A stretch of DNA of 64,000 nt from Betaproteobacteria bacterium. GTDB taxonomy: Bacteria > Pseudomonadota > Gammaproteobacteria > Burkholderiales > SG8-39. The position numbers were made by a program, and so were the translations under genes. Location of the stretch: positions 12,322 to 76,321 of the forward strand of contig VBCA01000005.1 in assembly GCA_005881575.1 (NCBI GenBank). Reading direction: 5' to 3'. This document shows positions 22,782 to 45,168 of this stretch, piece after piece (positions within the stretch are counted from its first letter, which is position 1; the number at the start of each line of letters is the position of its first letter). The notes below the pieces were generated by a model, which had not been told where the DNA came from, made no database searches, and worked only from the letters and a program-made list of their open reading frames with translations.

Positions 22782-22825
22782 GCAACCCCCAAAAATCAAA
22801 ACGGAGTAAAGATTCAACGAAACTC

Positions 22826-22840
22826 GCAAAATATGTGCCC
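22826..22840 (-). promoter_or_regulatory. Sigma-54 (-24/-12) promoter of the pilin genes
   Basis: The minus strand reads GGGCAC-atatt-TTGCG, compared with the consensus TGGCAC-N5-TTGCW. The GG/GC spacing is exact, and it lies 45-60 nt upstream of the pilin-2 ATG. Confidence 0.75.
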
Positions 22841-29552: not shown

Positions 29553-30167
29553 TCAAGCGGGCTTGAGCCCTCTGACCGAGATCAGGTCGACCTGGCACTC
29601 GGCCCGAAGGCGTGGTCGCAGCGTCGTCGTGCCCGGTGCCGCCCCGCGCTCTATCCGCGTCACGGTGCAATTCCGCACGGACACGTGCGCCTTGATGCCT
29701 GCCTGCAGGTCTGCCAGGAAATTCAGGAGATCCCCCTCGTGCAGCAGCAGCATGTCGAGTTTCAGCCTGCTCACCACAAAGTCGGCGCCGCCGGTTGGTA
29801 CCAGCCCGGGATAGTCGAGCGGTCTTTGGGCTTCGAAGTTGTACCTGATCTCGAAGAGCTTGCGATCGTTTTTGATCCTGGCGATCGATTCGATCCAGTC
29901 GAGGCGGCTCTGCTCGCCCACGACACCGCGTTGGCGCATCTGCTCGTAGTACACGAGATCATCGCGGATCTCGCGCTCTTCCTCCGAGACTCTTAGGACC
30001 CGTTCCTGGGCCGCCACGCGGGTCAGTCTGGTTGCGTCCTGCGCCGTTCTCGCCTCGTCCAGGTAGTATCCGCTGGCGATCAGGCTGGCTGCACCCAGCA
30101 CGAGCAGTATGATCGCCATAGCGAGCGGCATGCGCAGGCGCTTGAGGTCGTCGCGGGTGACGTTCAT
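29553..30167 (-). CDS. PilO/MshJ-like bitopic pilus assembly protein
   Basis: 204 aa with a single N-terminal TM (PLAMAIILLVLGAASLIASGYYL), a coiled-coil-like stretch and a C-terminal globular part. Its ATG overlaps the stop of the upstream PilM/N-like gene (ATGA). The assignment rests on architecture and position. Confidence 0.5.
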   Translation of the reverse strand: MNVTRDDLKRLRMPLAMAIILLVLGAASLIASGYYLDEARTAQDATRLTRVAAQERVLRVSEEEREIRDDLVYYEQMRQRGVVGEQSRLDWIESIARIKNDRKLFEIRYNFEAQRPLDYPGLVPTGGADFVVSRLKLDMLLLHEGDLLNFLADLQAGIKAHVSVRNCTVTRIERGAAPGTTTLRPRLRAECQVDLISVRGLKPA

Positions 30168-31738
30168 GTGCCGCGCCGCTTGACGACTACGACTGAGAAC
30201 TGCGGCACTTCCTCTCTCCTCGCCGCACCGATATCGCCGGCGAGGCTTTTTTCCGCGTTGATGTCGAACGGCAGCTGCGTGCGCGTCACTTCGGTGCCGG
30301 GCCGCCTGCGCAGCGCCTCGGTAAACTGGTTCACCAGCGCGGTCACGGCGCGGAAGTCCGAGGCCTGCTGCACGACGAGCTTGCCCGCAATCTCGGCGGT
30401 TTGGGTCTGAAACTCGGCGCCCGCGGCCTGTGCCTGCCCTGCCGGCGGGGCGGAAGGGGTCTTCGACGCCTCGCGGCCGGCTGCCGATTTCGCGCCGGCG
30501 CCGAACTCCCAATCGATCCTGTCGATTTCAATCTGGGGTAGAGCCGTTACCGCTTCGCTGATCTCGTTGAACATCCCGCCGGGCGAACCGCTCTGCCGCA
30601 GCAGCGCCCGGTAGTTCTTGACGACCGCTTTCAGGGTTTCGCTGGAGATCGGCGTCTTCGGGAAGCGCGTTTGCAGTCGAGCGTATTCCACGGAGGCGCG
30701 GGCTTCCTGTACGCGGTCATTGTGAGCCTGCTCGGAGACATGAAGGACATCAAGAAGTCTCACCGCCGAAACGAGCAGGCAAAAGGCGAACACCGCCGCC
30801 CCGGTGGCAAGCAGGGCCACGCGCGCGCGCCACAAATGATAGGAGCGCCGCAGGCGCTCGTCGGCATACTGTTCGCGGGACGGGTACGCGGCGAGGACGT
30901 GGAGAAACAGCCCCTCGGCGAGCGTCTCGGCGGGCACCGATTTGAGGCCCAGGCCGCTGCCCACCTTGTCGAGGTCGTGAACATGGAACTGCAGCCGGGC
31001 GGAATTGACGCAGGCCGCGTCGTAGAGCGCCTTGTGCCCGCTCGGCGCAAGCACGAGCACGTCGAGCGCAGGCGCCTCGCGCGGCAGAATACGGCTGTTG
31101 ACGAGATACTGCTGGATCCGCAGGGACTCGGCGGCGCAATCCTGGGCGATCACGCGGGGATCGGAGGAGTCCACGCGGCCGAGGCGCGAGAAGCGGATTC
31201 GGCCGTTTTCGATGTAGCTTTGCCGCAGTCCGGCGTGCTGCCGGCTCACCATCAGGTATCGCCCACCCTTGAAACCGAGTCGCTTCCCCATCTGAGCCGC
31301 GACGAGGGCCACTGAAAATACGCCGACCACGCAGGCATCGTTCGAGCGCAAGGCCTCGAGCCAGGGCTGGAACAGCTGCGTGTTGGTAAACGACATGTAG
31401 AGAATCCGTTCCTCGCGCCGGCCCGCGTGGGTCTCCGACCCGAGCGAAAGCGGGAGGGCGAGCGACGCGTCGCGGTAACGCTGGGCGAGCTTGCGCGCAA
31501 GCAGCGCGCGCCGGTCCGCGCCGCGCACGTAAGGTATGTTCTCCTGAAAGAAGTCTTCCTCGACCATGTCGGCGAGCAAGTAGAAAAGACTTCCCGGGGC
31601 GCCGGCCGCGTATCTGGAGAACTCGGCGACGCCTTTCTCGTTCATGTCGAAAACGCCTTCCCTGTGCAGCTCGCCCTTGGTCCATAGATAGGCGGTGACT
31701 CTCTGGGAAGTGAGGTAACAGAGACGTTTGCTCGGCAC
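30164..31738 (-). CDS. MshI-like (PilM/PilN-type fusion) pilus assembly protein
   Basis: 524 aa. It has a ~300-aa cytoplasmic domain, one TM (VALLATGAAVFAFCLLVSAV) and a ~200-aa periplasmic part. It lies immediately downstream of the GspF homologue. Confidence 0.5.
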   Translation of the reverse strand: MPSKRLCYLTSQRVTAYLWTKGELHREGVFDMNEKGVAEFSRYAAGAPGSLFYLLADMVEEDFFQENIPYVRGADRRALLARKLAQRYRDASLALPLSLGSETHAGRREERILYMSFTNTQLFQPWLEALRSNDACVVGVFSVALVAAQMGKRLGFKGGRYLMVSRQHAGLRQSYIENGRIRFSRLGRVDSSDPRVIAQDCAAESLRIQQYLVNSRILPREAPALDVLVLAPSGHKALYDAACVNSARLQFHVHDLDKVGSGLGLKSVPAETLAEGLFLHVLAAYPSREQYADERLRRSYHLWRARVALLATGAAVFAFCLLVSAVRLLDVLHVSEQAHNDRVQEARASVEYARLQTRFPKTPISSETLKAVVKNYRALLRQSGSPGGMFNEISEAVTALPQIEIDRIDWEFGAGAKSAAGREASKTPSAPPAGQAQAAGAEFQTQTAEIAGKLVVQQASDFRAVTALVNQFTEALRRRPGTEVTRTQLPFDINAEKSLAGDIGAARREEVPQFSVVVVKRRGT

Positions 31739-31743
31739 GGCGT

Positions 31744-32949
31744 CTATACCTTGATCTTGCTGATGACGTCGTAAATCGGCCCGAGAACGGAGAGCATCAC
31801 CCAGCCGAGAATGACGCCGAGGACTACCGTCAGAGCCGGCTCGATGATCACTTGAATCTTACCGATCGATTCGCGCACTTCTCGGTTGTAGAAATAGGAC
31901 ACATTGAGCAGCGCCTTGTCGAGTGCGCCGGTCGCCTCGCCCACCCGGAGCATTCTCACGACGAGCGGCGGGAAAAGCCCCACCTCCTGGAACGCTGCGG
32001 TGACGTTCTTGCCCTCGCCGATCTGCTGTCCCGCGAGTCTCAAGCCCTCCTGGATGACCATGTTGCCGGTGATTTCCTCGGAGCTGCGGATGGCATCGAG
32101 GATGGTGATCCCGGAGGAGTACATGAGAGCGAAGATGCTGGCGAAGCGAGACAGGATGATCTTGCGCATGATCTCGCCCGCCACCGGGAGAGCGAGCTTG
32201 AAGCGATCGACCTGATAACGCACCAAGGGGTTCGCCCGAGCAGCCAGCTTGACGCCGACGAACAGGATCGCGGGGGCAGCCAGGAGAGCCCACCAGTAGC
32301 CTACGAAAAACGCCGAGACCTCGATCAAGACGCGCGTCTGCAGAGGGATCTGCTGCCCCATGTTCTTGATGAAGGTGACCATCTGCGGCACGAGGTAGAT
32401 CATCAGGAAGAAAGTCACCAGGATCACGATCGAACCGACGAACGCCGGGTAGAGGATGAGCTTCTTCATGTGCTCGGCCAGCTCGTCTTCCCATTTCAGG
32501 TTCTCGACGAGGCTTTTCAGCACGTCGGCGAGCCTTCCCGTGTCCTCACCGGCGCGGACGAGGCTCGTAAAAACCGGGTTGAAGATCTGCGGATACTGGG
32601 CGAGGCTCTGCGACAGCCGCAGGCCGCCTTGGATACTCTCGATGACTCCCGACATGACTTCGCGAAATCGGGCATTTTCGATGCTGTCGCGAAGGTCGAT
32701 CAGCGATTCGACGAGCGGTACCCCGGCCGCGATGAGCTGCTCCATGTGGAAGCAGAAGTTGATGAGCTCCGCGCGCTTGATTTCGCCCGAGCGAAGGAGG
32801 CTTCCGCCGTAACGAGTCGGCCCGCCCCGCACCAGGTCCAGCCCCATGCGCTTCAGACGCAGCTCGAGATCGACCAGATTGATCGCCTCGATCTGGCCGA
32901 GCATCGTCTTTCCCCGGGTATCTACGGCCTTGTAGGCAAAGAGTGCCAT
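31744..32949 (-). CDS. mshG: Type II secretion system F family platform protein (MshG/PilC-like)
   Basis: 401 aa with duplicated T2SSF domains and 3 TM regions (e.g. LILYPAFVGSIVILVTFFLMIYLVP, and the C-terminus EPALTVVLGVILGWVMLSVLGPIY). Confidence 0.85.
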   Translation of the reverse strand: MALFAYKAVDTRGKTMLGQIEAINLVDLELRLKRMGLDLVRGGPTRYGGSLLRSGEIKRAELINFCFHMEQLIAAGVPLVESLIDLRDSIENARFREVMSGVIESIQGGLRLSQSLAQYPQIFNPVFTSLVRAGEDTGRLADVLKSLVENLKWEDELAEHMKKLILYPAFVGSIVILVTFFLMIYLVPQMVTFIKNMGQQIPLQTRVLIEVSAFFVGYWWALLAAPAILFVGVKLAARANPLVRYQVDRFKLALPVAGEIMRKIILSRFASIFALMYSSGITILDAIRSSEEITGNMVIQEGLRLAGQQIGEGKNVTAAFQEVGLFPPLVVRMLRVGEATGALDKALLNVSYFYNREVRESIGKIQVIIEPALTVVLGVILGWVMLSVLGPIYDVISKIKV

Positions 32950-32982: not shown

Positions 32983-34710
32983 TTACATCCGGTCGGTGAG
33001 GTCGACCACGCGCATCAGCTCATCGAGCGCGGTCGACCCGTCGAGGACCCGGCGAACGCCGTCGTCGGCCAGCGTGCGAAAGCCCCTCGCCAAGGCCGAC
33101 TTCTGCAATTCCCGGCCGGTGGCGCGGTGCGCGATCAGCTCGTCGAGTTCACCGTCCATCTTCAGGATCTCGATGATGGCCATGCGACCCCGATAGCCCT
33201 GATACTCGCATTGGTCGCAGCCGACCGCGCGGTACAGGGTCGGTGGACGATCGGCCCGCGCTCCCACCATGCCGCACTCGCCAGGGTTCGCCTGATGAGC
33301 CTGCTTGCAATGCTTGCACAATTTGCGGACCAGGCGCTGCGCGACGATGCCGATGATGTTGCCGGCGAGGACGTCCGGGACGATGCCGATGTCGAGAAGC
33401 CGGGGAATCGCGCCGGCCGCCGAGTTGGTGTGGAGCGTCGAATAGACCTGATGTCCGGTCATCGCCGCGCGGAACGCCATGGTGGCCGTGTCCTCGTCGC
33501 GAATCTCGCCGACCAGGATCACATCGGGGTCCTGCCGCATGAGAGAACGGATGCCGTTGCCGAAATCCATCTTGGCGGCTTCGTTGATCGAGGTCTGCCG
33601 GATCAGCGTCATGGGATATTCGACCGGATCCTCCAGCGTCATGATGTTGAGGCCGTCGTTATTGATGTGATTGAGCACCGAGTAGAGCGTCGTCGTCTTG
33701 CCGCTGCCGGTGGGACCTGTGACCAGGATGATGCCTTCGGGCCGCGCGATCATTTTCTTGAGAAGCTGAAGCTGGGCCGCTTCGAGTCCCAGTCCGTCGA
33801 GCGGAACGATCCCTTTCTGCCGGTCGAGAATGCGCAGCACGATGTTCTCGCCGTGCGTGGTCGCTTGCGACGAGACGCGGAAATCGACCGCGCGGCCCGT
33901 TAGCATCAGCGAGATGCGCCCGTCCTGTGGGGCGCGTGTTTCGGCGATGTTCATCTTCGACATCACCTTGATGCGCACGGCCATCGCCGGCCAATACGTC
34001 TTGTGGAGGGACCTTATCTGGCGCAGCACCCCGTCGATGCGATAGCGGATGCGCAGAAAACTCTGCTCCGGCTCGAAGTGAATATCGGAGGCGCCCCGCT
34101 CGACGGCGTCCGCGAGGAGCGCCGAAATGAGGCGCACGACCGGTTGCGAATAGGCGTCGCCGGACGCCTGGAGGCTCTGGTAATCGATCTCGCCGGTCTC
34201 GATCTCGTGCAGGATCCCGTCGATCGAAAAATCGTGGCCGTAGTACTGGTCGATAGCCCGGCCGATCTCGCCCTCGCCAGCGAGCCGCATCTCGAGCGCG
34301 AACTCCCCGCGCAGCTGCGCCCGCACCTGGTCCAGCGCCACGATGTTGTTCGTGTCGGCAATCGCGATGATGAGCTTGCGCGCCTCGCGGTCGAGCGCGA
34401 CCGGGAAAATGGTGTGTCGCTTGGAGAATTCGCGCGGCACGAGCTTCAGGGCCATCGAGTCGACGACGATCTGCGTGAGGTCGACGCTCTGCAGGCCGAG
34501 TTTTTCGGACAAGGCGTCGCGCAGCGTGGCTTCGGACACGAAGCCCAGATTTACGAGGAGCTTTCCGACGGGCTGATGGGTCTTGAGCTGCTCGAGCAGC
34601 GCGATCCGCAGCTGATCCTCGGTGAGGATCCCCTGCGAGATCAAGATCTGCCCGATATGGCGCTTGGCCTGCGGCGAAATCGCCTGAGCGCTGAGGCGCG
34701 GGGAATTCAT
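32983..34710 (-). CDS. mshE: GspE/PilB-family assembly ATPase with an MshEN-type N-terminal domain
   Basis: 575 aa with Walker A GPTGSGKTT, Asp/His boxes, Walker B and a tetracysteine motif (C..C...C..C: CKHCKQ...GCDQCEYQGY). The N-terminus carries two MshEN-like 24-residue motifs. Confidence 0.9.
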   Translation of the reverse strand: MNSPRLSAQAISPQAKRHIGQILISQGILTEDQLRIALLEQLKTHQPVGKLLVNLGFVSEATLRDALSEKLGLQSVDLTQIVVDSMALKLVPREFSKRHTIFPVALDREARKLIIAIADTNNIVALDQVRAQLRGEFALEMRLAGEGEIGRAIDQYYGHDFSIDGILHEIETGEIDYQSLQASGDAYSQPVVRLISALLADAVERGASDIHFEPEQSFLRIRYRIDGVLRQIRSLHKTYWPAMAVRIKVMSKMNIAETRAPQDGRISLMLTGRAVDFRVSSQATTHGENIVLRILDRQKGIVPLDGLGLEAAQLQLLKKMIARPEGIILVTGPTGSGKTTTLYSVLNHINNDGLNIMTLEDPVEYPMTLIRQTSINEAAKMDFGNGIRSLMRQDPDVILVGEIRDEDTATMAFRAAMTGHQVYSTLHTNSAAGAIPRLLDIGIVPDVLAGNIIGIVAQRLVRKLCKHCKQAHQANPGECGMVGARADRPPTLYRAVGCDQCEYQGYRGRMAIIEILKMDGELDELIAHRATGRELQKSALARGFRTLADDGVRRVLDGSTALDELMRVVDLTDRM

Positions 34711-34718
34711 CGAGAGGG

Positions 34719-36050
34719 CTATTTACTCAGCTCCTGCACGCGCAGCCGCGCCCGGGCGGGGTCGAAGCTCGCCGCACGCCGGTCGGTCAGGGCAAGCGCG
34801 CGCTGGTAGAACTCGAGCGCGAGCTTTCCCTGGTGCAGCTGGTCGAGACTGACGGCGAGATTGAAGACGTAGTCGGCATTTTCCGGATCGACCGAATGAG
34901 CCTTGAAGTACGCCGCCTGCGCTTCGCTCCAGCGCGCCTGCTGCGCGTACTGGTTGCCGAGCGAGAAGTGAAGAAGCGCGGACTCGGGCTGGGTTGCGAT
35001 GAGGTTTTTCAAGCGGCTCTCCGAGGCCACCGGGTCGAGCTGGCCGCGCAGCGAAATGAGGCTCGCCGCGGCGTGGCTGTCGCGCGGATCCATCTCGAGC
35101 AACTTGAGATAACGCGCTTCGGCGGAGTTGAGCTGGCCGCTGCGCACATCGATCGCCGCGAGGCCGAGCAGCGCGTCGCGGTTGGTCGGCTCGCGCGCGA
35201 GCGCCCGCTGGTATGCGTCGCGGGCGGCGACGAGGTCGTTCCTCTGGAACGCCTGGTACCCCTGTTCGACCAGCGGATCGACGCCCAGCGTGGGGGCGTT
35301 GATCGCGATCGGCGCGAGCACCTCGCCTGCCCGCGGCGAAGCGGATACTGTCGATTCCGACGCGGATTCGGGCCGCACCGCCGAGGAAGCGAGCGTACCC
35401 GAGGCCGGTTGCGACCTCGGCCGCGGCGGACGCACCGGCTGTATCGGGGGAATTGTCGGCACTGCGGTGCGCGCCGGTGCCGGGACCGCGGCCTGCGGCG
35501 CCGGCGGAGGGGGCGCTGCATCGGGCTGGGAAGGTGTCGCGACGGGGGCGGACGCCACGGCGGGCGGCGCGGGTGCCGCGACCGGACGGGCTTGCAATTC
35601 CGCCGGAGGGACGGCGTACTTCGGGCGCATTTGCCACCATACATAGCCGACGTAGCACACTCCGACCACGGCAAGCGCCCCCAGAGTGAGATAAAACGGC
35701 CGACGCGGGTTGTAGTCCATCTCCTTCACCTGAAAGAGCTGTTGGGCTTGAGCTCGCTCAGACGTGCGTGCGAATTCGTTCATCGCAGGCATCGGCTGCG
35801 CCGCAGGCTCGAACCTGTGCTGTTCCTCCAGCGACAATTCGGGCCTTGCCGCGGCCGTCTCCGCGGCCTTCGTTTCCGACGAGGGCAAATCGTCGGTGAG
35901 GATCTCCAGCGGCTGCGAGATGTCGGGCAGCTTCTCCCGGGTGATCACCCCGGGTGCCGGCTCGGACTTGGGCTCCGGAGCGGGCGCCTCCGCTTTGGCG
36001 ACCTGCTTGGCGAGCTCGGCTTTTTTCAGCGCTTCGAGGAGCAGGCTCAT
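34719..36050 (-). CDS. GspB/ExeB-like N-terminus + Pro/Ala-rich linker + TPR protein (MshN-like)
   Basis: 443 aa. It has the MSLLLEALKKAE opening, one TM (FYLTLGALAVVGVCYVGYVWW), a long P/A-rich low-complexity region and C-terminal TPR repeats. Confidence 0.65.
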   Translation of the reverse strand: MSLLLEALKKAELAKQVAKAEAPAPEPKSEPAPGVITREKLPDISQPLEILTDDLPSSETKAAETAAARPELSLEEQHRFEPAAQPMPAMNEFARTSERAQAQQLFQVKEMDYNPRRPFYLTLGALAVVGVCYVGYVWWQMRPKYAVPPAELQARPVAAPAPPAVASAPVATPSQPDAAPPPPAPQAAVPAPARTAVPTIPPIQPVRPPRPRSQPASGTLASSAVRPESASESTVSASPRAGEVLAPIAINAPTLGVDPLVEQGYQAFQRNDLVAARDAYQRALAREPTNRDALLGLAAIDVRSGQLNSAEARYLKLLEMDPRDSHAAASLISLRGQLDPVASESRLKNLIATQPESALLHFSLGNQYAQQARWSEAQAAYFKAHSVDPENADYVFNLAVSLDQLHQGKLALEFYQRALALTDRRAASFDPARARLRVQELSK

Positions 36051-37855
36051 CTCGAGAACTCGGGAGTCCCAGCCTTGCCAGGGTTGGGCCGCGAAATGAA
36101 ATCCTCACCCGGAATCATCGTTCGGAACGAGCGGAAGTCGCCGTCGATGCTTGGATCCCTTATTACGACGGGGCGCAGAAAAACGACCAGCTCGGTCTTC
36201 GCGTTGTTGCGGTTGCGCGAGCTGAAGAGCGATCCGATGATCGGGATGGAGTTGATGATCGGAATGGTATCCTCGATATCGTTGACCGAGTCCTCGATCA
36301 ATCCGCCCAGCACCGCGATCTGGCCGCTGTTGACCTTGATCAGCGACTCCAATTCCCGCATACGCAATTGCGGAACCGGATTCTGCACCCCCGCCTTGGC
36401 CAGGTCGGGGTTGGGATCGTTGACGAATTTCACCAGCCGCGTCGTGGTCGGCTTCACATTCAGGAGGATCGTGTCGTTGTCGCTGATCTGAGGCGTGATG
36501 TTCATCACGAACCCCACCGGAACCGTGACCGGTGAGGTGTTTGTTGCCGTAGTGGCAGCCACATTTGCGGTCGCCACTATGGTTACCTGCACGGTGAAGT
36601 AAACAATGTTATCGACTACCCGAAGCAGCGCCGTTTGGTTGTTGAGGACCGAGATTTTGGGACTCGAGAGCACGCGCACCGTCCCGAAGGATTCAAGCAG
36701 CTGGAGAACGCCCGCGATGTTCGTTCCTCTCGAGACGGCGAGCGTGAGTAGATTCGGGATCGTGGAGGCACTCGGAAGGCTCGACGGCGGCGTTGCGCCA
36801 ATGCCGAACGGAAAGAGGGGGTTGGTCGTAACGTTCCCCGAGGAAATTTGGCTGCCCGAGATGGTCGTGAGCCCCCGCGTGCGCAGGGCCGACCAATCGA
36901 TGCCCTGCTGATACTGGTTGTTCAGCTGCACTTCGGCGATGGTCGCCTCGATCAGCACCTGGCGCCTTGCGTTCGCCAGGACTTGGTCGAGAAATTCCTG
37001 GATTTTTTCATGCTGCCGCGAGGTCGCGCGCACGATGACGAGGCCCGCTTCAGCATTGACGATCACCGCTGCCGCTTCCCGAAAGCTGACGTTGGGCGCG
37101 GTCGGCGCCTGGGGAGCGGATCCGGGCGCGCCCGTTGACGCCTGAACAAGGGTGGACTGGGGAGCGCCGGTGGGCAGGACCTTGTCGGTCTCGTGCAGGA
37201 TGTCCTTGATGTTCTTTTCGAGCGTGGCCCAGAACTTGTTGTCCGAAGTATTGCGGACCGTCGTGCTGGAGCTGTTGCCGCCGCCCGTCGCACCTGCCGC
37301 CCCGGCCCCTCCCCCGCCCGCGGTCCCGCCGCCGGTGCCGATTTGCGAAGAGACGCCGACGGTACCGGTGGAGGTGCGCTCCATGTTGAGGTAATCGATC
37401 CGGTATGTGTGCAGGTACGGGGAATCCGGCATGACGATCAGGTTCGGGCCGTCCAGTTCCCAGCGCATGTCGACCTGCTTGGAAATTCGCGACAGGAGCT
37501 GCGGCAAGGTCTGCTCGATCGCATTGAGCGTGACCGTCCCGGTGATTCCGGAATGAATGTCTATGTTCAGCTTGGCATCTCGCGCAAGCGCGAACAGGAG
37601 CTCCTGCGCCCTGACCCCGTTGACCACCACGCTGTAGGTCTCGGGTCGCTGGGTCGGTTTGGGTTTGGGCAGCAGCGTGGAGATTTGTATTGGGGCAGGC
37701 ACGGATCCGGAAGGCGCCGGCTCCTCGGCCCGAAGGTGCGTGCCCGATGGCTGAATTGGCGCGTGGGCGCACGCCCCGAGCACGAACAAAACACCCGCCA
37801 GCGAAATGCGTCGCAAGGTGGCCTCCGATTCCCTTTTTGCCCCGACCCGGAACAT
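36047..37855 (-). CDS. mshL: Secretin (MshL-like), predicted lipoprotein
   Basis: The C-terminal secretin domain reads VPQLRMRELESLIKVNSGQIAVLGGLI...IPIIGSLF...ELVVFLRPVVI. The start at 37855 gives a lipobox LFVLGA|C with Cys29. The ORF track extends to 38260 across the upstream gene. Confidence 0.85.
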   Translation of the reverse strand: MFRVGAKRESEATLRRISLAGVLFVLGACAHAPIQPSGTHLRAEEPAPSGSVPAPIQISTLLPKPKPTQRPETYSVVVNGVRAQELLFALARDAKLNIDIHSGITGTVTLNAIEQTLPQLLSRISKQVDMRWELDGPNLIVMPDSPYLHTYRIDYLNMERTSTGTVGVSSQIGTGGGTAGGGGAGAAGATGGGNSSSTTVRNTSDNKFWATLEKNIKDILHETDKVLPTGAPQSTLVQASTGAPGSAPQAPTAPNVSFREAAAVIVNAEAGLVIVRATSRQHEKIQEFLDQVLANARRQVLIEATIAEVQLNNQYQQGIDWSALRTRGLTTISGSQISSGNVTTNPLFPFGIGATPPSSLPSASTIPNLLTLAVSRGTNIAGVLQLLESFGTVRVLSSPKISVLNNQTALLRVVDNIVYFTVQVTIVATANVAATTATNTSPVTVPVGFVMNITPQISDNDTILLNVKPTTTRLVKFVNDPNPDLAKAGVQNPVPQLRMRELESLIKVNSGQIAVLGGLIEDSVNDIEDTIPIINSIPIIGSLFSSRNRNNAKTELVVFLRPVVIRDPSIDGDFRSFRTMIPGEDFISRPNPGKAGTPEFSR

Positions 37856-37965
37856 TTTTCCGTGGAAGTATAACAATACCACGTAACAAACTGATTTAAC
37901 AAACCAAAAGAACCACAGCGCCCCTCCGATTGGACCTTCGGCGGCCCGCGCAAACCGGGCGATTG

Positions 37966-39384
37966 TCATTGGCGATTCTGGCTGCGCATTCTCTCCACGC
38001 TCCGATAGTACGGATGGTACGCGGAAATCACCGGTGGCAATCCTCTTATGGCGGCCAGCGCTTGATCCGGGCTCGCGTAGGATCCGTAGGCGACACGGTA
38101 ATGCTGCTGGCCGTCGATCTTCACGCTGTACACGAAAAGCTCGCTGACCGGCAGGATCTTCGATATTCGAAGCAAGAAGTCTTCCAGTTGCCCTAGTTCT
38201 TTCGAATTGACGATGGCCAACTGGATTGCGTAGCGGCGCCCCGGGGCGCCCTTCAGCCACTCCTGCGTTGCGGCAAAGCGCCTGCGGGCGAGCTCACCTC
38301 CCCCGGGAGGCACCGGCTGCGCCGGTGTCGAGCTTTCCGCGCTGTGTTTGAGCGCCGACACATCCGCGCTCGCGGACGGAGACAAACCCGAAACAGGGGG
38401 CATCGCGGCTTGCGCAGACCGCGCAGGCGTTTCAGCCGCGGCGCTGCTCGCCGGTGCTGACGGGGGGCTGGACGCGTTGCTTGGCCGACCGGTCGGAAGG
38501 AGCATGTGGGTTCCCCATCCGAGCGCAAGGCCGGCGGCGAGCGCTGTCGCGCCGATCCAGATCCTTTGCATGCCGGTCCGTGCTCGATAGAACTCGGTGT
38601 CGCGCACGGCCCTTCTGGCTTCAGCGTGAGTGACGGCATGGGTGCCGGCCGCGTACGCGGCGAGCAGGGCCTTGTCCGAGAGAATGTTGACGCGGCGCGT
38701 GAGACCCTGTGAGGCGCTTGCAATGAGCTTGATTGCTCTCGGATTGAAAACCGCGGGACCCCGGTAGCCCGCGGCGCGCATGCGAAAGTCGATGTAGCTC
38801 TCGATATCGCTGCGCACCAGGGGTTCCAAGTGAAAGCTTTGCGTGATGCGCTCCCTCAGCTGCCGCATGCCCGCCGTGTCGAGGTGCTCGTCGAGCTCGG
38901 ACTGCCCGAAGAGCACGATCTGCAGCAGCTTGTGGCGATTCGATTCGAGATTCGACAACAGCCGGATCTCCTCGAGGGTTTCGTCGGGCATCGCGTGCGC
39001 TTCGTCGATCAGCACCACCACCCGGCGGCCCTCGCCGAAGAGGCGGATGAGATGCTCCTGCAGCGCCCGAAGAATGCGCGGTCCTTTTTCCAGCGGGAGC
39101 TTCAGCTCGTCGCCGATTGCGAACAGGATTTCGTCGCGCGACAGCGACGGATTGGCGAGGTAGATGGTTTCGACCGTCGCAGGCAGCCGCTCCATCAGCA
39201 CGCGGCACAACATCGTCTTGCCGCTGCCGACCTCGCCGGAGACCTTGACGATGCCCTCGTCATGGGTAATGGCGTAGAGCAGGGCTTCGAGGGTCGCCCC
39301 GCGGTTGGCGCCCTGAAAGAAGAAATCGGTGTCGGGGGTGATGCGAAAGGGCGGCTCTTTCAACCCGAAATGGTCCAGATACAT
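37966..39384 (-). CDS. mshM: ExeA/MshM-type AAA ATPase with a C-terminal SPOR-like domain
   Basis: It reads MYLDHFGLKEPPFRITPDTDFFF...SGEVGSGKTMLCR (ExeA/MshM signature). It has one TM (IWIGATALAAGLALGWGTHML), and the tail YAIQLAIV...QQHYRVAYGSYASPDQALAAIRGLP resembles SPOR. Confidence 0.8.
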   Translation of the reverse strand: MYLDHFGLKEPPFRITPDTDFFFQGANRGATLEALLYAITHDEGIVKVSGEVGSGKTMLCRVLMERLPATVETIYLANPSLSRDEILFAIGDELKLPLEKGPRILRALQEHLIRLFGEGRRVVVLIDEAHAMPDETLEEIRLLSNLESNRHKLLQIVLFGQSELDEHLDTAGMRQLRERITQSFHLEPLVRSDIESYIDFRMRAAGYRGPAVFNPRAIKLIASASQGLTRRVNILSDKALLAAYAAGTHAVTHAEARRAVRDTEFYRARTGMQRIWIGATALAAGLALGWGTHMLLPTGRPSNASSPPSAPASSAAAETPARSAQAAMPPVSGLSPSASADVSALKHSAESSTPAQPVPPGGGELARRRFAATQEWLKGAPGRRYAIQLAIVNSKELGQLEDFLLRISKILPVSELFVYSVKIDGQQHYRVAYGSYASPDQALAAIRGLPPVISAYHPYYRSVERMRSQNRQ

Positions 39385-39412: not shown

Positions 39413-40837
39413 CTATTGCTGCTTCTGCGCCGATTCCATGCGGGAGTACAAGGTCGTTCGATTGATGCCGAGCATCTTGGCCGCCTGACTGACGTTGCCT
39501 CGCGTGAGCTTCATCGCGGCCTCGATGTACCCCTGTTCCCACGCCTTGAGCATCTGATCGAGATTGAAGCTGCGCTCGCGCTGCAGATGGCGCTGCGCCT
39601 GCTCGATGAGCGTTCCCGGATCCGACGGCAATCCCGGTGCGCCGTCGGCCTGCGCTTCCAAATCGAATTCGGGCTCGAGTTCCGCAAGGGACAGCTTCTG
39701 CCCGGCGTACTTGGTGGTCAGCCGGATGACGACGTTGCGCAGCTCGCGCACGTTGCCCGGAAAGTGATAGTCGCGCCAGGCCTTTTGCGCTGAATCGTCC
39801 AGCGCGAACGGCGCGAGCTTCGCTTGCTCCGCGTAGAACTTGCGGTAGTGCTCGAGCAGCAGCGTGCGATCGTCGTCCATCTCGCGCAGCGACGGCACCT
39901 CGATCGTGAACACCGACAGCCGGTGATACAGGTCGGCGCGGAAGTTCCCTTTCCTGACTTCCTGGCGCAGGTCGCGATTGGTGGCGGCGATCACCCGGGA
40001 ACGCGAGAAACGCTGCTGGGTCTCGCCGACACGCTGGAACTCGCCGTTCTCGAGCACGCGCAGAAGCTTGGCTTGCAGCTCCAGGGGCAACTCGCCGATC
40101 TCATCCAGAAACAGCGTTCCGTCGCTCGCATCTTCGAAATAGCCTGATTTGTTCTGCGTCGCGCCGGTGAACGCGCCCTTGGTGTAGCCGAAAAGCGTGG
40201 GCTCGACCAAGGTCGGCGCGATCGCCGCGCAGTTCAGAGCGAACCACGGCTTCACGCGCCTCCACGAAAGGCGATGGAGAAGGTTCGCCACCACTTCCTT
40301 GCCGGTCCCGGATTCGCCTTCGATGAGCGCCGGAAAGGGCGAGTCGGCGTATTGGCTGATCTGACTCTTCAGCTTCTGCAGCGCGGGGCTCTTGCCGACC
40401 AGGGGGTCGGTCTCGGCGATTCCTTCTCCCGAAATTTCGGCCGCGCGAAACTGGAGGGCGTGCAGCAGGATCTTCTTGAGATTCTCCGGATCGCTCGGCT
40501 TGGCGACGAACTCCGCCGCGCCGAGCGTGCGCGCGTGCCTCGCGTTGGCAGCGTCGTTCTGGCCAGAGAGCACCAGGATCTTCATGGTCGGGGAATGCGC
40601 GAGCAAGTCGCTGATCAGCTGGAAGCCCTCGTCGGGCCGGTGGGGCATGGGGGGTAGGCCGAGATCGACCAGCGCGAGCTGCGGGGCCTCGTCGAGCTGC
40701 CTCAGCAGACTCACGGCATGGTGGCGCGAATCGCTTACCATGACCTCGAAGTCCTTTCCGAGCGCGTAGGACAGGGTCTCGGTGATGAGTGGATCGTCGT
40801 CGACGATCAACAGGCTGGGATGGCGATCTTCAGGCAT
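39413..40837 (-). CDS. Sigma-54-dependent response regulator (PilR/PrsR-like)
   Basis: 474 aa. It has a receiver domain (LLIVDDDP...DLGLPP...PDEGF), an AAA+ domain with Walker A GESGTGKE and the GAFTGA sigma-54 contact motif, and a C-terminal Fis-type HTH ([21 protein letters not shown]). Confidence 0.9.
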
Positions 40838-41555: not shown

Positions 41556-41717
41556 AAGGCAGCCCTTCGTGGGGAGGCGTCGATGATAGCGCAAAGACGG
41601 CGCTCTTTCACGGCGAAACTCCGATTGCCGCGCGATCGCTCGAGAGCGGCCCAGGTATGTCGTGGCGCGCCTTTCTGGGCTAGAATTCGCCCTTCGCGTA
41701 ATCCCGAGCAGGAAATC

Positions 41718-42518
41718 GTGGCGACAAGCAATCTGGTCGAGGTCCAGAACGTCACGTTCGGCTACGACGAGCGCCAGGTTTTGAAAGACATCAACCTCGT
41801 CGTTCCCCAAGGCAAGGTGGTCGCCATCATGGGTTTGTCCGGGTGCGGGAAAACAACGCTCCTTCGTGTGATCGGCGGAGCGCTTTTGCCCGACCGCGGT
41901 GAAGTTCGCGTCGCCGGCCGCGTGGTCAACAAACTCAGCGATCCGGAGCTTTTCGCTCTGCGGCGCAGGATGGGCATGCTGTTCCAGTTCGGCGCCCTTT
42001 TCACCGATCTGTCCTCGTTCGAAAACGTGGCGTTCCAGATGCGCGAGCACACGAACCTGCCTGAGTCGATCATTCGCGACCTCGCGCTCATGAAGCTGCA
42101 GGCGGTGGGCTTGCGCGGCGCCGCGGATCTCATGCCCTCGGAGCTCTCCGGCGGCATGGCGCGTCGCGTGGCGCTCGCGCGCTCGATTGCGCTCGACCCG
42201 ATGCTCATGATGTATGACGAACCTTTCACGGGCCTCGACCCGATTTCCCTCGGAGTCATCGGCCAGCTGATCCGGCGGCTCAACGACTCGCTCGGCGCGA
42301 CTTCGATCGTCGTAACTCACGACGTCGCCGAAGCGCTCGAACTGGTCGACTACGTCTACTACATGTCCGTAGGAAAGGTCGAATTTCAAGGCACCCCCGA
42401 CCAGGTGCGTGCGGCGGGACTTTCGTCGCTTCGCCAGTTCGTCTATGGCGAGCCCGATGGGCCGGTCCCGTTCCATTACCCGGCGCCGGATTATCGGCAG
42501 GATCTGCTCGCGCAATGA
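41718..42518 (+). CDS. mlaF: Phospholipid ABC transporter ATP-binding protein MlaF
   Basis: It has a GTG start, [11 protein letters not shown] and Walker [10 protein letters not shown]. It is followed by mlaE/D/A/C/B. Confidence 0.9.
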
Positions 42519-43312
42519 CCGGGCGCATCGCGGAGCTCCTGCGCGCGCTCGGCGCGCGCATCATCAACAACTGGGTCTGGCGCCTCGGGTTCGCGTTCCG
42601 CTTCCTGTGGTTCACGCTCAAGGAGTCGGGGGCGAGCTTTCGGCGCTTCCATCTGACGATTCGCGAAATCTACTTCACCGGGGTGCTGTCGCTCATCATC
42701 ATCCTCGTGTCGGGGCTGTTCGTCGGGATGGTCCTGGCCCTGCAGGGCTACGACACGCTCGTGCGGTTCGGTTCCTCGGAGGTACTCGGGGTGCTGGTGA
42801 GCCTGTCGCTGGTGCGTGAGCTTGGCCCCGTCGTCGCGGGATTGCTCTTTGCCAGCCGCGCGGGGAGCGCGATTACCGCGGAGATCGGGTTGATGAAAGC
42901 GACCGAGCAGCTTGCGGCGATGGAAATGATGGCGGTCGATCCCATCGCTCGCGTGGTCGCTCCACGTTTTTGGGCCGGCGTGATTTCCATGCCCCTGCTC
43001 GCGGCGCTTTTCTCCGCGATGGGGGTGTTCGGCGGCTACCTCGTCGGCGTGCAGCTGATCGGTGTCGACGAGGGCTCGTTCTGGTCGCAGATGCAGGCGG
43101 CGGTGGATTTTCGCGAAGACGTCTTGAACGGCGTGATCAAGAGCCTGGTTTTCGGGGTGGCGGTGGCCTGGATCGCCGTGTATGAAGGCTACGACGCGGC
43201 GCCGACCGCCGAGGGCGTTTCGGGCGCGACCACGCGTACGGTGGTCACTTCGTCGCTCGCGATCCTCGCGCTCGACGTCGTATTGACGGCACTGATGTTC
43301 AGAGGAACCTAG
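42515..43312 (+). CDS. mlaE: Phospholipid ABC transporter permease MlaE
   Basis: 265 aa of the MlaE/YrbE permease family, with a 4-nt overlap with mlaF. Confidence 0.9.
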
Positions 43313-43314
43313 TC

Positions 43315-43788
43315 ATGATGACGCGCAAAGAACTGGACCTGTGGGTGGGGATTTTCGCGGTGATCGGCATCGGCGCGATGCTGTTCCTGTCCCTGAAGGT
43401 GGCGAACCTCGCCTCGTTTTCGGCAGGGGATACGTATCAGATTCAGGCCAAGTTCGACAACATCGGAAGCCTAAAAGTCCGCGCGCCGGTGAAAAGCGCC
43501 GGCGTGGTCGTCGGCCGGGTCAGCGAGATTCATTTCGACAACGAGAGCTTCGAGGCGGTGGTGACGCTCAACGTCGATGGCCGCTTCAAGTTTCCCAAGG
43601 ACAGTTCGGCGAAGATCATGACCGCGGGCCTGCTCGGCGAGCAGTACATCGGCGTGTCGCCCGGCGGCGATTCGGTCAACCTGAAAGGCGGCGATACCTT
43701 GAAACTCACGCAGTCCGCGGTCGTGCTGGAGAATTTGATCGGTCAGTTCCTGTACAATAAAGCCGCCGAAGGGGACGGCAAGAAGTAG
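43315..43788 (+). CDS. mlaD: MCE-domain substrate-binding protein MlaD
   Basis: 157 aa with an N-terminal anchor and an MCE domain (F.NIGSLKVRAPVK.AGV.VGRV). Confidence 0.9.
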   Translation: MMTRKELDLWVGIFAVIGIGAMLFLSLKVANLASFSAGDTYQIQAKFDNIGSLKVRAPVKSAGVVVGRVSEIHFDNESFEAVVTLNVDGRFKFPKDSSAKIMTAGLLGEQYIGVSPGGDSVNLKGGDTLKLTQSAVVLENLIGQFLYNKAAEGDGKK

Positions 43789-43809
43789 GATTGAAGGAAA
43801 GCCGACCGC

Positions 43810-44532
43810 GTGGTGAAAGCGAAGAGGCTGTGCGCGGTGCTGCTGCTGGCGGGAACGTCGGCTGGCTGCGCCACTTCTGGTGGCAACCCGGCCGATCCTC
43901 TCGAGCCGCTCAACCGGGCGGTGTTCGGCTTCAACGATGCCGCGGACAGGGCGGTGATCAAACCGGTTGCGAGAGCCTACCGCGCCGTGCTGCCGGGAAC
44001 CGTCCGCACCGGTGTTTCGAATTTCTTTTCCAACCTCGAGGACATCTGGATTTCGATGAATGACGTGCTGCAAGGCAAATTTCAGCATGGGGTAGACGAC
44101 TTGGGGCGGTTTCTCTTCAATTCGACGTTCGGGATCGCCGGCATTTTCGACTTCGCCTCCGAGTTGGGATTCCCAAAGCACAATGAAGATTTCGGCCAGA
44201 CCTTGGGTTCCTGGGGCGTCGGCAGCGGCGCGTACCTGGTTCTGCCGATCCTCGGTCCTTCCACGATCCGCGACGGTTTCGGCTTGCTGCTCGATACCCA
44301 AGCCGACCTTGTTTTCCAGATCGACGGGGTTCCCGTGCACAACTCCCTCTACGCGACGCGCGCGATCGGCGCCCGTGCCAACCTGCTCGATGCCTCGAGC
44401 GTTATCGAACAGGCCGCGCTCGACAAATACGCGTTCGTGCGCGATGCCTGGCTGCAGCGCCGACGCAACCTCGTCTACGACGGTGACCCGCCGAGGGAAC
44501 GTGAGGAACCGGATGATGAATCCACCAAGTGA
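43810..44532 (+). CDS. mlaA: Outer-membrane lipoprotein MlaA (VacJ)
   Basis: It has a lipobox (LLLAGTSAGC) and the DPLEPLNRAVFGFND VacJ signature. Confidence 0.9.
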   Translation: MVKAKRLCAVLLLAGTSAGCATSGGNPADPLEPLNRAVFGFNDAADRAVIKPVARAYRAVLPGTVRTGVSNFFSNLEDIWISMNDVLQGKFQHGVDDLGRFLFNSTFGIAGIFDFASELGFPKHNEDFGQTLGSWGVGSGAYLVLPILGPSTIRDGFGLLLDTQADLVFQIDGVPVHNSLYATRAIGARANLLDASSVIEQAALDKYAFVRDAWLQRRRNLVYDGDPPREREEPDDESTK

Positions 44533-44547
44533 TCGGATCGAATCGCC

Positions 44548-45168
44548 ATGAAAAACTCTTTCTACCTGTTATTTGCATTGCTGGTCCCCCTCGCGCTGGC
44601 TCAGCAGCTTGCGCCCGACGTCCTGGTGAAATCGATCAGCGAGGAGGTCGTCGCCATCCTCAAGAAGGACAAGGACATTCAGGCGGGCGACACGAAAAAG
44701 GCCGCCGATCTGATCGAGGCGAAGATCGTCCCGCATTTCAACTTCATCCGGATGACCCGGATCGCCATGGCGCGCAACTGGCGGCTCGCCTCGCCGGAGC
44801 AACAAAAGATTCTTGCCGATGAATTCAAGACGCTGCTGGTCCGGACTTATTCGACGGCGATCTCCAATTACCGCGATCAGCAGATCGATTACAAGCCGCT
44901 GCGCGCCAAGCCCGAGGATACCGAGGTCACCGTAAGATCTGAAGTGAAGCCGTCGGGGTCGTCCCAGCCGGTTTCAATCGACTACGAGATGGAAAAAACC
45001 CCCAACGGGTGGAAAGTCTATGACGTCAAGGTCGGCGGGGTGAGCTTGGTTACGACCTACCGCGACACCTTCGCTAGCGAAGTCCGCGAGAACGGCGTGG
45101 AGGGCCTGATCAAATCGCTGGCTGCGAAAAACCGCCAGCCAGAGCGCTCGAAGGCAGGCAAGGCGTGA
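44548..45168 (+). CDS. mlaC: Periplasmic phospholipid-binding protein MlaC (Ttg2D)
   Basis: 206 aa with a signal peptide and an MlaC/toluene-tolerance family sequence (F.F..M....MAR.W). Confidence 0.85.
   Translation: MKNSFYLLFALLVPLALAQQLAPDVLVKSISEEVVAILKKDKDIQAGDTKKAADLIEAKIVPHFNFIRMTRIAMARNWRLASPEQQKILADEFKTLLVRTYSTAISNYRDQQIDYKPLRAKPEDTEVTVRSEVKPSGSSQPVSIDYEMEKTPNGWKVYDVKVGGVSLVTTYRDTFASEVRENGVEGLIKSLAAKNRQPERSKAGKA

Follow-up and report, generated by a model that had tools for sequence, protein, structure and literature searches.

A SPOR-tailed ExeA/MshM-type ATPase next to an MshL-family secretin in a betaproteobacterial MSHA-type pilus operon

In a 64,000-nucleotide stretch of contig VBCA01000005.1 from a Betaproteobacteria bacterium (hereafter the window), the interval 34719-39384 consists of three co-directional minus-strand genes that encode an ATPase, a secretin and a tetratricopeptide repeat (TPR) protein. 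The three genes are the equivalents of mshM, mshL and mshN in an operon for an MSHA-type type IV pilus, and the ATPase, judged by sequence profiles and predicted structure, ends in a true SPOR domain. The three products most likely form a GspA/GspB-like module for the assembly and anchoring of the secretin via denuded peptidoglycan, a reading drawn from sequence and analogy to which we give a probability of roughly 0.55. A preliminary description, made from the letters of the window, had pictured a dedicated module of the ExeAB type. The idea of a free-standing module had to be given up, as the genes sit within the pilus operon, where an MshM and an MshN flanking MshL are normal.

37966-39384, minus strand: ExeA/MshM-type AAA+ ATPase with a SPOR tail; whole gene including the stop codon, 472 amino acids; AAA_22 at E 2.7e-27
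36047-37855, minus strand: MshL-family lipoprotein secretin; 602 amino acids from ATG 37855, alternative start TTG 37816
34719-36050, minus strand: MshN-like bitopic TPR protein; whole gene including the stop codon, 443 amino acids; TPR families at E values down to 5e-13

The SPOR domain of the ATPase

The ATPase was divided into four parts from the N- to the C-terminus.

38599-39384, minus strand: cytoplasmic AAA+ domain, residues 1-262, with the N-terminal motif MYLDHFGLKEPPF, Walker A and Walker B
38497-38571, minus strand: predicted single membrane helix, about residues 272-296, IWIGATALAAGLALGWGTHMLL, GxxxG present
38299-38496, minus strand: periplasmic Ser/Ala/Pro-rich linker, residues 297-362 (S 23%, A 23%, P 20%; pLDDT <50)
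37969-38298, minus strand: DamX-type SPOR domain, residues 363-472, a helix followed by beta-alpha-beta-beta-alpha-beta

The preliminary description had taken this protein for an MshM/ExeA homologue whose tail resembles SPOR and not PG_binding_1, and the profile searches bore out both assignments. When the last 100 residues were scanned alone, Pfam SPOR (PF05036) scored 24.4 bits against a cut-off of 21, and the Pfam scan of the ATPase gave no match to PG_binding_1 (PF01471). The DamX model of NCBIfam matched the C-terminus as well (E 2e-6). Among the orthologous tails, which are 25-86% identical, 31 out of 34 matched SPOR and nothing else in Pfam. A profile of the tail family was searched against all PDB sequences and found the SPOR domain of DamX (2LFV), covering 91 of 98 positions at E 3.9e-10, with the next match at E 0.17.

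The predicted structure points in the same direction. A Foldseek search with the full-length model returned AAA+ proteins only (MuB, Orc/Cdc6 and RuvB), and the tail was therefore modelled separately. The AlphaFold2 model of the last 114 residues reached a mean pLDDT of 93.3 and shows, after a leading helix, strands (E) and helices (H) in the order E-H-E-E-H-E, in keeping with the RNP-like fold of SPOR domains, in which two helices flank the sheet. Its sole match below E 0.001 in the PDB was again the SPOR domain of DamX (2LFV; E 1.9e-5, TM scores of 0.59/0.63). The SPOR domain of RlpA (6I05) was found lower in the Foldseek list with a TM score of 0.69 on the target and a root-mean-square deviation of 2.8, and there were weak matches to ferredoxin-like proteins.

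The residues that contact glycan or determine localisation in SPOR domains include a glutamine in the first beta strand, which is Q270 in RlpA and Q351 in DamX (PMC6895207). The corresponding Q388 is a Gln in 30 and a Glu in 4 of the 34 tails. At the position of DamX W416 (459, Y459 here) 29 of the 34 carry an aromatic residue, and at that of DamX K418 (R461 here) 32 carry an Arg. The position equivalent to DamX S354 is variable, with an Ile in this ATPase; because the contact to glycan is made there by the backbone (PMC6895207), variation at this site would be tolerated.

It could be argued that the tail keeps the SPOR/RNP fold but binds a protein, such as the N-terminal domain of MshL or the TPR protein, and not peptidoglycan. 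The RNP-like fold serves many ligands, as the weak ferredoxin-like matches recall, and both the variable S354 equivalent (Ile here) and the Glu in place of the key Gln in 4/34 tails would agree with a changed ligand. However, Gln388, the aromatic residue at 459 and Arg461 are conserved, the S354 equivalent is a position where a backbone contact makes variation acceptable (PMC6895207), and the best matches in both sequence and fold are specifically SPOR domains. We regard a protein-binding tail as very improbable.

SPOR tails of this kind are numerous. In a library of representatives at 50% identity, 541 relatives of the tail were found at E<=0.001, and AAA_22 was present in 27 of the 49 longest among the top 150. 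More than 8000 homologues of the ATPase were retrieved, which NCBI names 'AAA family ATPase' and JGI labels 'MshM' or, in some cases, 'ExeA/septal ring-binding cell division protein DamX'. The latter names imply that the fusion is already visible in databases. In the literature on SPOR with ExeA, MshM or type IV pili, we found no paper describing an ExeA/MshM-SPOR fusion.

The AAA+ domain and the membrane segment

Walker A (GEVGSGKT at residue 50) and Walker B (VVVLIDE at residue 122) are both intact. For comparison, exeAB and the msh operon were taken from Aeromonas caviae, and a GspA/GspB pair from a replicon of Ideonella dechloratans. To Aeromonas MshM and ExeA and to GspA of Ideonella, the AAA+ domain shows 36-46% identity, with MshM being the best of the references compared (45.7% over 264 amino acids for the ATPase, 36% to ExeA). 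The 36-39% identity to Aeromonas ExeA and Ideonella GspA places the domain with the ExeA type. The Aeromonas reference itself is a curious record: it is listed in PLSDB as 'Aeromonas caviae plasmid pKAM479_3' (NZ_AP026896.1; our loci L082 and L083), measures 4.94 Mb and carries exeAB plus a complete msh operon. This is evidently a chromosome filed as a plasmid.

No sequence relative of the AAA+ domain was found in the PDB. According to Foldseek, its nearest folds are MuB, Orc/Cdc6 and TnsC, which are AAA+ proteins of the initiator or loader type. Residues 1-30 of the ATPase are invariant in 42 close homologues (71-92% identity), yet they were modelled with a pLDDT below 50. A segment that becomes ordered upon binding would fit this combination.

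The predicted model shows a helix at residues 264-294, and the BLASTP alignment with ExeA (residues 1-339 against 1-338) spans the membrane segment. Within this segment, GLALGWG has GxxxG-type spacing, and L282, G285, L286, G289 and W290 are invariant among the close homologues. Such spacing may serve helix-helix packing or oligomerisation. The distance from the helix to the SPOR domain, estimated as the start of SPOR minus 300, ranges from about 45 to 248 residues among the orthologues. The sequence analysis shows the ATPase as an ExeA/GspA-type AAA+ protein with one predicted inner-membrane helix and a predicted disordered linker, at whose periplasmic end sits a DamX-type SPOR domain.

The secretin and the pilus operon

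Features of the secretin and the neighbouring operon genes are the following.

37769-37855, minus strand: lipoprotein signal peptide with the lipobox VLFVLGA|C
37277-37339, minus strand: Gly/Ala-rich low-complexity insert GTGGGTAGGGGAGAAGATGGG in the N-terminal region of the secretin
39413-40837, minus strand: sigma-54-dependent response regulator (Response_reg, Sigma54_activat, HTH_8), 28 bp upstream of the ATPase gene
32983-34710, minus strand: MshE-type assembly ATPase with an MshEN domain that binds cyclic di-GMP (c-di-GMP) (T2SSE at E 3e-127, MshEN at E 9.6e-14)
31744-32949, minus strand: platform protein of the GspF/PilC/MshG type (T2SSF at E 1.1e-45)

The secretin matches the Secretin_N_2 and Secretin domains. 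It passed the MshL model of NCBIfam (TIGR02519, pilus_MshL) narrowly, with 251.9 bits against a cut-off of 250.2, and failed the NCBIfam models for GspD, PilQ and other secretins. The MshE-type ATPase passed NF053729 (58.5 bits, cut-off 38) and is 37% identical to Aeromonas MshE, and in BLASTP the MshG-type protein is 29% identical to Aeromonas MshG over the full length. In the published model of the MSH system, mshA, E, G, L and M are mandatory, and all MSH loci are without a prepilin peptidase (PMC6668835). Here, MshL, MshE, MshG, MshM and MshN were recognised, and none of the operon genes examined was recognised as a prepilin peptidase.

Two other systems were considered and rejected. A type II secretion system (T2SS) is at odds with the neighbours, which are MshL-, MshE- and MshG-type genes and pilins; the secretin reached 178 bits against a GspD cut-off of 351, and no pseudopilin domain of the GspG type was found. 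Membership in a PEP-CTERM/exosortase system was raised by matches to TIGR03015, PrsT and PEP_resp_reg. The XrtA/PEP-CTERM-associated ATPase TIGR03015 is the best NCBIfam match of the AAA+ domain, but it scored 216.2 bits against a cut-off of 324.5. Similarly, the TPR lipoprotein PrsT is the best NCBIfam match to part of the TPR domain, well below its cut-off of 312.2. All of these scores lie under their cut-offs, and the context contains no exosortase.

The lipobox and the Gly/Ala-rich insert, both pointed out in the preliminary description, are present, and on sequence comparison both are ordinary traits of the MshL family, with nothing peculiar to this locus. The lipobox occurs in essentially all of the 72 betaproteobacterial orthologues (63 by pattern match and the other 9 by inspection), a run rich in G/A/S/T/N in 65 of the 72, and Aeromonas MshL has a lipobox and a low-complexity insert too. 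The start of the secretin gene needs a comment. The mechanical open reading frame (ORF) extends from 36047 to 38260, but the real start is ATG 37855, or TTG 37816, which is preceded by GGAGG. No stop codon interrupts the frame upstream, over the 3' end of the ATPase gene (37966-38260), and this is why some pipelines call a secretin of 640 amino acids from ATG 37969, overlapping the stop codon of the ATPase. The lipoprotein signal favours the shorter forms, and NCBI calls the secretin at 602 amino acids in a near-identical metagenome-assembled genome (MAG).

The TPR protein and its N-terminal peptide

The protein encoded after the secretin was resolved into the following parts.

36003-36050, minus strand: cytoplasmic N-terminal motif of the GspB/ExeB type, MSLLLEALKKAELAKQ
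35634-35702, minus strand: membrane helix, about residues 117-139, FYLTLGALAVVGVCYVGYVWW, Kyte-Doolittle 1.87
35295-35633, minus strand: periplasmic Pro/Ala-rich linker, about residues 140-252 (P 25%, A 24%)
34755-35294, minus strand: periplasmic TPR domain, about residues 253-432 (TPR_2, TPR_19, TPR_1, TPR_11)

One membrane helix, a Pro/Ala-rich linker and TPR repeats had been read from the sequence before, and hydropathy, composition and profile matches agree with all three. The TPR domain gave weak matches, to the pilotins PilW and Tgl and, at E 1.9e-5, to PilF structures. The earlier comparison of the whole protein with GspB/ExeB fared differently at its two ends: the N-terminal signature stood, and the family membership did not.

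The protein opens with the 12-residue motif MSLLLEALKKAE (longer start MSLLLEALKKAELAK). The same motif begins Aeromonas ExeB (MSTLLKALRRADQ) and the GspB annotated in RefSeq for Ideonella (MSYILDALRRADAER). When all the retrieved DNA was translated in six frames (2.26 million residues) and searched with a regular expression for the motif, there were 68 matches, one in each locus, which goes well past what chance would give. All 68 lie where the TPR gene or ExeB/GspB begins, and none is spurious. In 58 orthologues of the TPR protein, the first 12 residues are near-invariant, and the cytoplasmic stretch that follows varies freely. As a bitopic protein with a short cytoplasmic N-terminus of the form MSxLLxALRRA[DE], shared with ExeB/GspB, the TPR protein is GspB-like in this respect. 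The starts of gammaproteobacterial MshN are more distant (MSVINQMLKDLD in Aeromonas, MSLLNEMLKDLN in Legionella).

Towards the C-terminus, the likeness ends. The T2SSB/HR domain (PF16537) gave no match at E<=10, neither in the whole TPR protein nor in its first 150 amino acids, and it is found in none of the 120 listed homologues of the TPR protein. The N-terminal 150 amino acids matched nothing in Pfam or NCBIfam. Because the HR domain is missing, the protein is GspB-like at its N-terminus only, and membership in the GspB/ExeB family was ruled out.

The motif MYxxxFGLxxxPF of the ATPase and the MS..L..L motif of the partner co-occur in five ATPase-partner pairs. GspA and GspB of E. coli K-12 (L081) are without either N-terminal motif, and this joint absence, a single case taken from sequence, agrees with a joint action of the two motifs. 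As a reference for the N-terminus, E. coli K-12 GspB was set aside as uninformative, since it is atypical and motif-less: it starts with MFEFYIAAREQ and has no HR domain.

Conservation across Betaproteobacteria

A scan with one genome per species yielded 80 loci, all from Betaproteobacteria in the broad sense. They belong to Rhodocyclaceae (including Rhodocyclus tenuis), Accumulibacter, Azonexus, Propionivibrio, Sulfuritalea, Usitatibacter, Gallionellaceae, Rugosibacter and many MAGs. The four core genes occur together in 58 loci, and all 58 of these are colinear, running from the regulator through ATPase-SPOR, MshL, the TPR protein, MshE and MshG to a 524-amino-acid protein. The sigma-54 response regulator stands upstream of the ATPase in nearly all loci compared. 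The SPOR tail is present in 75 of the 78 complete ATPase ORFs. For two of the three that lack it, the tail is encoded in a different frame, which hints at frameshifts.

At the species level, the closest genome is a 'Betaproteobacteria bacterium' MAG with an 88% identical ATPase. The exact TPR protein was also found in the soil MAG GCA_005881935.1 and in soil metagenomes. The identity of the secretin and the TPR protein to Aeromonas MshL and MshN is merely 23-24%.

Comparison with known secretin machinery

A close counterpart is the GspA/GspB pair of T2SSs (ExeA/ExeB or EpsA/EpsB; Aeromonas, Vibrio; PMC9239104). GspA binds peptidoglycan through PF01471 and acts with GspB in secretin assembly, and the periplasmic HR domain of GspB binds to the secretin's N0 domain (PMC9239104). 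The ATPase follows the same plan, with an ExeA-type AAA+ domain starting MYxxxFGLxxxPF, one helix, a linker and a periplasmic domain of a peptidoglycan-binding type. Likewise, the partner is bitopic and starts with a peptide of the MSxLLxALRRA[DE] type, after which come a membrane helix and a Pro/Ala linker, and the adjacent genes are associated with a secretin. The periplasmic ends differ. SPOR (PF05036) takes the place of PG_binding_1 (PF01471), a peptidase-like domain is missing here, and the partner has TPR repeats where GspB has the HR domain (T2SSB). Furthermore, the secretin is a pilus MshL and not a GspD, and its gene lies between the other two.

The gammaproteobacterial MSHA systems of Vibrio cholerae and of the Aeromonas and Legionella loci have the same three components adjoining MshE and MshG; in V. 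cholerae, the three are VC0402-0404. The TPR protein shares the architecture of MshN, which consists of an N-terminal peptide, a membrane helix, an Ala/Pro linker and TPRs. In contrast, gammaproteobacterial MshM stops at the membrane helix (295 and 303 amino acids in Aeromonas and Legionella) and has no periplasmic domain, so that about 175 residues of linker and SPOR are extra here. The gene order is M-L-N here and L-M-N-E-G in Aeromonas and Legionella, and the N-terminal peptide of the TPR protein is nearer to that of GspB (ALKKAE) than to that of gammaproteobacterial MshN (MLKDLD). The preliminary description had spoken of an ExeAB module rebuilt with different domains. This wording is apt when the T2SS GspAB is the standard, but not for the gammaproteobacterial MSHA system, against which the SPOR tail is the sole added domain.

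The tail has its best match in DamX of E. coli (2LFV). DamX likewise is bitopic in the inner membrane, has a long periplasmic linker that is disordered, and ends in a SPOR domain. It is, however, a cell division protein and carries no AAA+ ATPase domain. Known SPOR proteins were all tied to division or morphogenesis in a paper from 2019 (PMC6895207). Secretin machines with a domain that binds denuded glycan have been described: PilQ has AMIN domains (PMC5285504), and Legionella LspD carries SPOR at its N-terminus (PMC6617341, PMC9239104). In both of these cases, the domain that binds peptidoglycan is part of the secretin, whereas here its presumed counterpart sits on a separate inner-membrane ATPase, and the Pfam scan of the secretin gave no AMIN, SPOR or LysM domain.

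A proposed module for secretin installation

From these comparisons, the GspA/GspB-like reading can be spelled out as follows. The N-terminal peptide of the TPR protein would dock onto the cytoplasmic AAA+ domain and give a GspA/GspB-like complex. The Pro/Ala linker would then extend the TPR domain toward the outer membrane, where it may hold MshL monomers or the ring in the manner of the TPR pilotins PilF/PilW/Tgl and of TadD. The SPOR domain would fix the complex to the denuded glycan strands that amidases leave at the septum and the new poles, and the secretin would thereby be put in place and retained there. The binding to peptidoglycan that PG_binding_1 provides in GspA and AMIN in PilQ would be supplied in trans.

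Several observations weigh against this reading. Scanned over its full length, the ATPase scored 20.1 bits for Pfam SPOR, which is under the cut-off of 21, and the precomputed annotation of this ATPase is without SPOR. The membrane segment, rich in Gly and Ala at about residues 275-296, is weakly hydrophobic, with a Kyte-Doolittle value of 1.24 compared to a median of 1.92 in 80 orthologues, most of which are clearly hydrophobic there; low hydropathy marks this clade. That the TPR domain touches MshL, and the N-terminal peptide the ATPase, is deduced only from architecture and co-occurrence. In two genomes, the ATPase-SPOR gene has no secretin, TPR or MshE gene downstream, and there it may be an operon remnant or reflect an independent use of the protein.

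L016:6902-8365: ATPase-SPOR locus without a secretin, Rhodocyclaceae MAG
L080:7001-8401: ATPase-SPOR locus without a secretin, Gallionellaceae MAG

The strongest reservation is due to V. cholerae, in which the deletion of mshM or mshN leaves surface MSHA pili at the wild-type level (PMC4624765). The homologous pair is hence not universally needed for secretin function, and it may be accessory or regulatory. According to such an explanation, the ATPase and the TPR protein would contribute to pilus dynamics or signalling, for example, and be dispensable for secretin biogenesis, with SPOR merely immobilising them. The same deletions suppress a motility phenotype related to c-di-GMP (PMC4624765), and the operon described here has a sigma-54 response regulator at its head and includes the c-di-GMP-binding MshE, all of which would suit regulation. 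However, the invariant order of ATPase, secretin and TPR protein and the GspB-type motif point to the secretin. So does the TPR domain, which resembles TadD and PilF (PMC6668835): MshN is homologous to TadD, and TadD is needed for the Tad secretin to be assembled (PMC6668835). In addition, mshM is mandatory in the TXSS model of MSH (PMC6668835). We consider a purely accessory role unlikely.

Somewhat more credible, though still well behind the assembly module, is an explanation in which the SPOR tail mainly serves as an address label that sends the ATPase and the pilus machine to the septum and the new poles without any part in secretin insertion. This would resemble the pre-installation of the type IVa pilus (T4aP) machine in P. 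aeruginosa, and it overlaps with the GspA/GspB-like reading, from which it differs only in the purpose of the module. SPOR domains direct proteins to denuded glycans of the septum (PMC6895207), the AMIN domains of PilQ recruit the T4aP machine to septal peptidoglycan in a like manner (PMC5285504), the glycan-contact residues of the tail are conserved, and MshL is without a targeting domain of its own. On the other hand, the homologous GspA has been linked to the assembly of the secretin, beyond its localisation (PMC9239104).

A wider proposal, which we put forward tentatively and hold to be distinctly less probable than the secretin module itself, is that the ExeA-type ATPases make up, with their bitopic partners, a single modular family for secretin installation. 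It would comprise GspAB of T2SSs, gammaproteobacterial MshMN and the betaproteobacterial form. A partner peptide of the type MSxLLxALKKAE would dock on the MYLxHFGLxxxPF segment of the ATPase. In the periplasm, the end domains would be exchangeable: the ATPase would end in PG_binding_1, in SPOR or in neither, and the partner in HR or TPR. The betaproteobacterial SPOR domain would then be the first outside cell division and would pre-install an MSHA-type pilus at the future pole via septal denuded glycan.

Neighbouring genes

Downstream of the MshG-type gene, the operon continues with proteins that are less easily named, and the prepilins lie farther away.

30164-31738, minus strand: first protein downstream of MshG, 524 amino acids
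29553-30200, minus strand: second protein downstream of MshG, 215 amino acids
29095-29500, minus strand: third protein downstream of MshG, 135 amino acids
27371-29098, minus strand: unusually large pseudopilin-like protein, 575 amino acids
26392-27360, minus strand: unusually large pseudopilin-like protein, 322 amino acids
21347-22781 and 19516-21282, minus strand: two tandem prepilin genes, 70% identical to each other, each with an N_methyl motif

The proteins of 524, 215, 135 and 575 amino acids had no match in Pfam or NCBIfam, and BLASTP against Aeromonas proteins found nothing for the three that follow MshG. By their position, these three may be the equivalents of MshI, MshJ and MshK (PilM/N/O-like). 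The gene for the 524-amino-acid protein is syntenic in nearly all related loci, as seen by tblastn. A clear N_methyl motif is present in the 322-amino-acid pseudopilin-like protein.

Farther downstream follow a divergently transcribed histidine kinase, the two prepilins and a protein resembling O-antigen ligases and PglL. The similarity of the prepilins to Aeromonas MshB is confined to 18 residues in BLASTP. The membrane protein after them (588 amino acids) matches Wzy_C and Wzy_C_2 and, weakly, PglL_A; together with the prepilins, this Wzy_C/PglL-like protein suggests O-glycosylation of the pilin. An element resembling a sigma-54 -24/-12 promoter, GGGCACATATTTTGCG, lies at 22825-22840 on the minus strand, about 44 nt upstream of the first pilin gene, and would fit the sigma-54 regulator that heads the operon. 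In a scan of the whole window, matches to sigma-54 promoters were no commoner than in shuffled sequence.

On the other side, mla genes are located at about 41700-45168 of the window. The secretin-less ATPase-SPOR gene of L016 adjoins mlaFED, which is the same neighbourhood.

Significance

The SPOR-tailed MshM module is a conserved, abundant and uncharacterised variant of known secretin machinery. At 50% identity this large family falls into hundreds of clusters, and it occurs in the environmentally important Accumulibacter, Azonexus, Gallionellaceae and Sulfuritalea, while standard annotation mostly says 'AAA family ATPase' only. Both the end of the ATPase that would bind peptidoglycan and the end of the partner that would face the secretin have been swapped in nature. 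The AAA+ domain and the 12-residue peptide of the partner have stayed constant, which points to these as the parts of the core mechanism and to a defined contact between peptide and ATPase. The finding bears on the role of GspA/ExeA ATPases and on how a secretin passes through the cell wall and is fixed in it. If the reading is true, SPOR domains would extend beyond cell division, and the septal pre-installation described for the AMIN domains of PilQ would have a second route, in trans.

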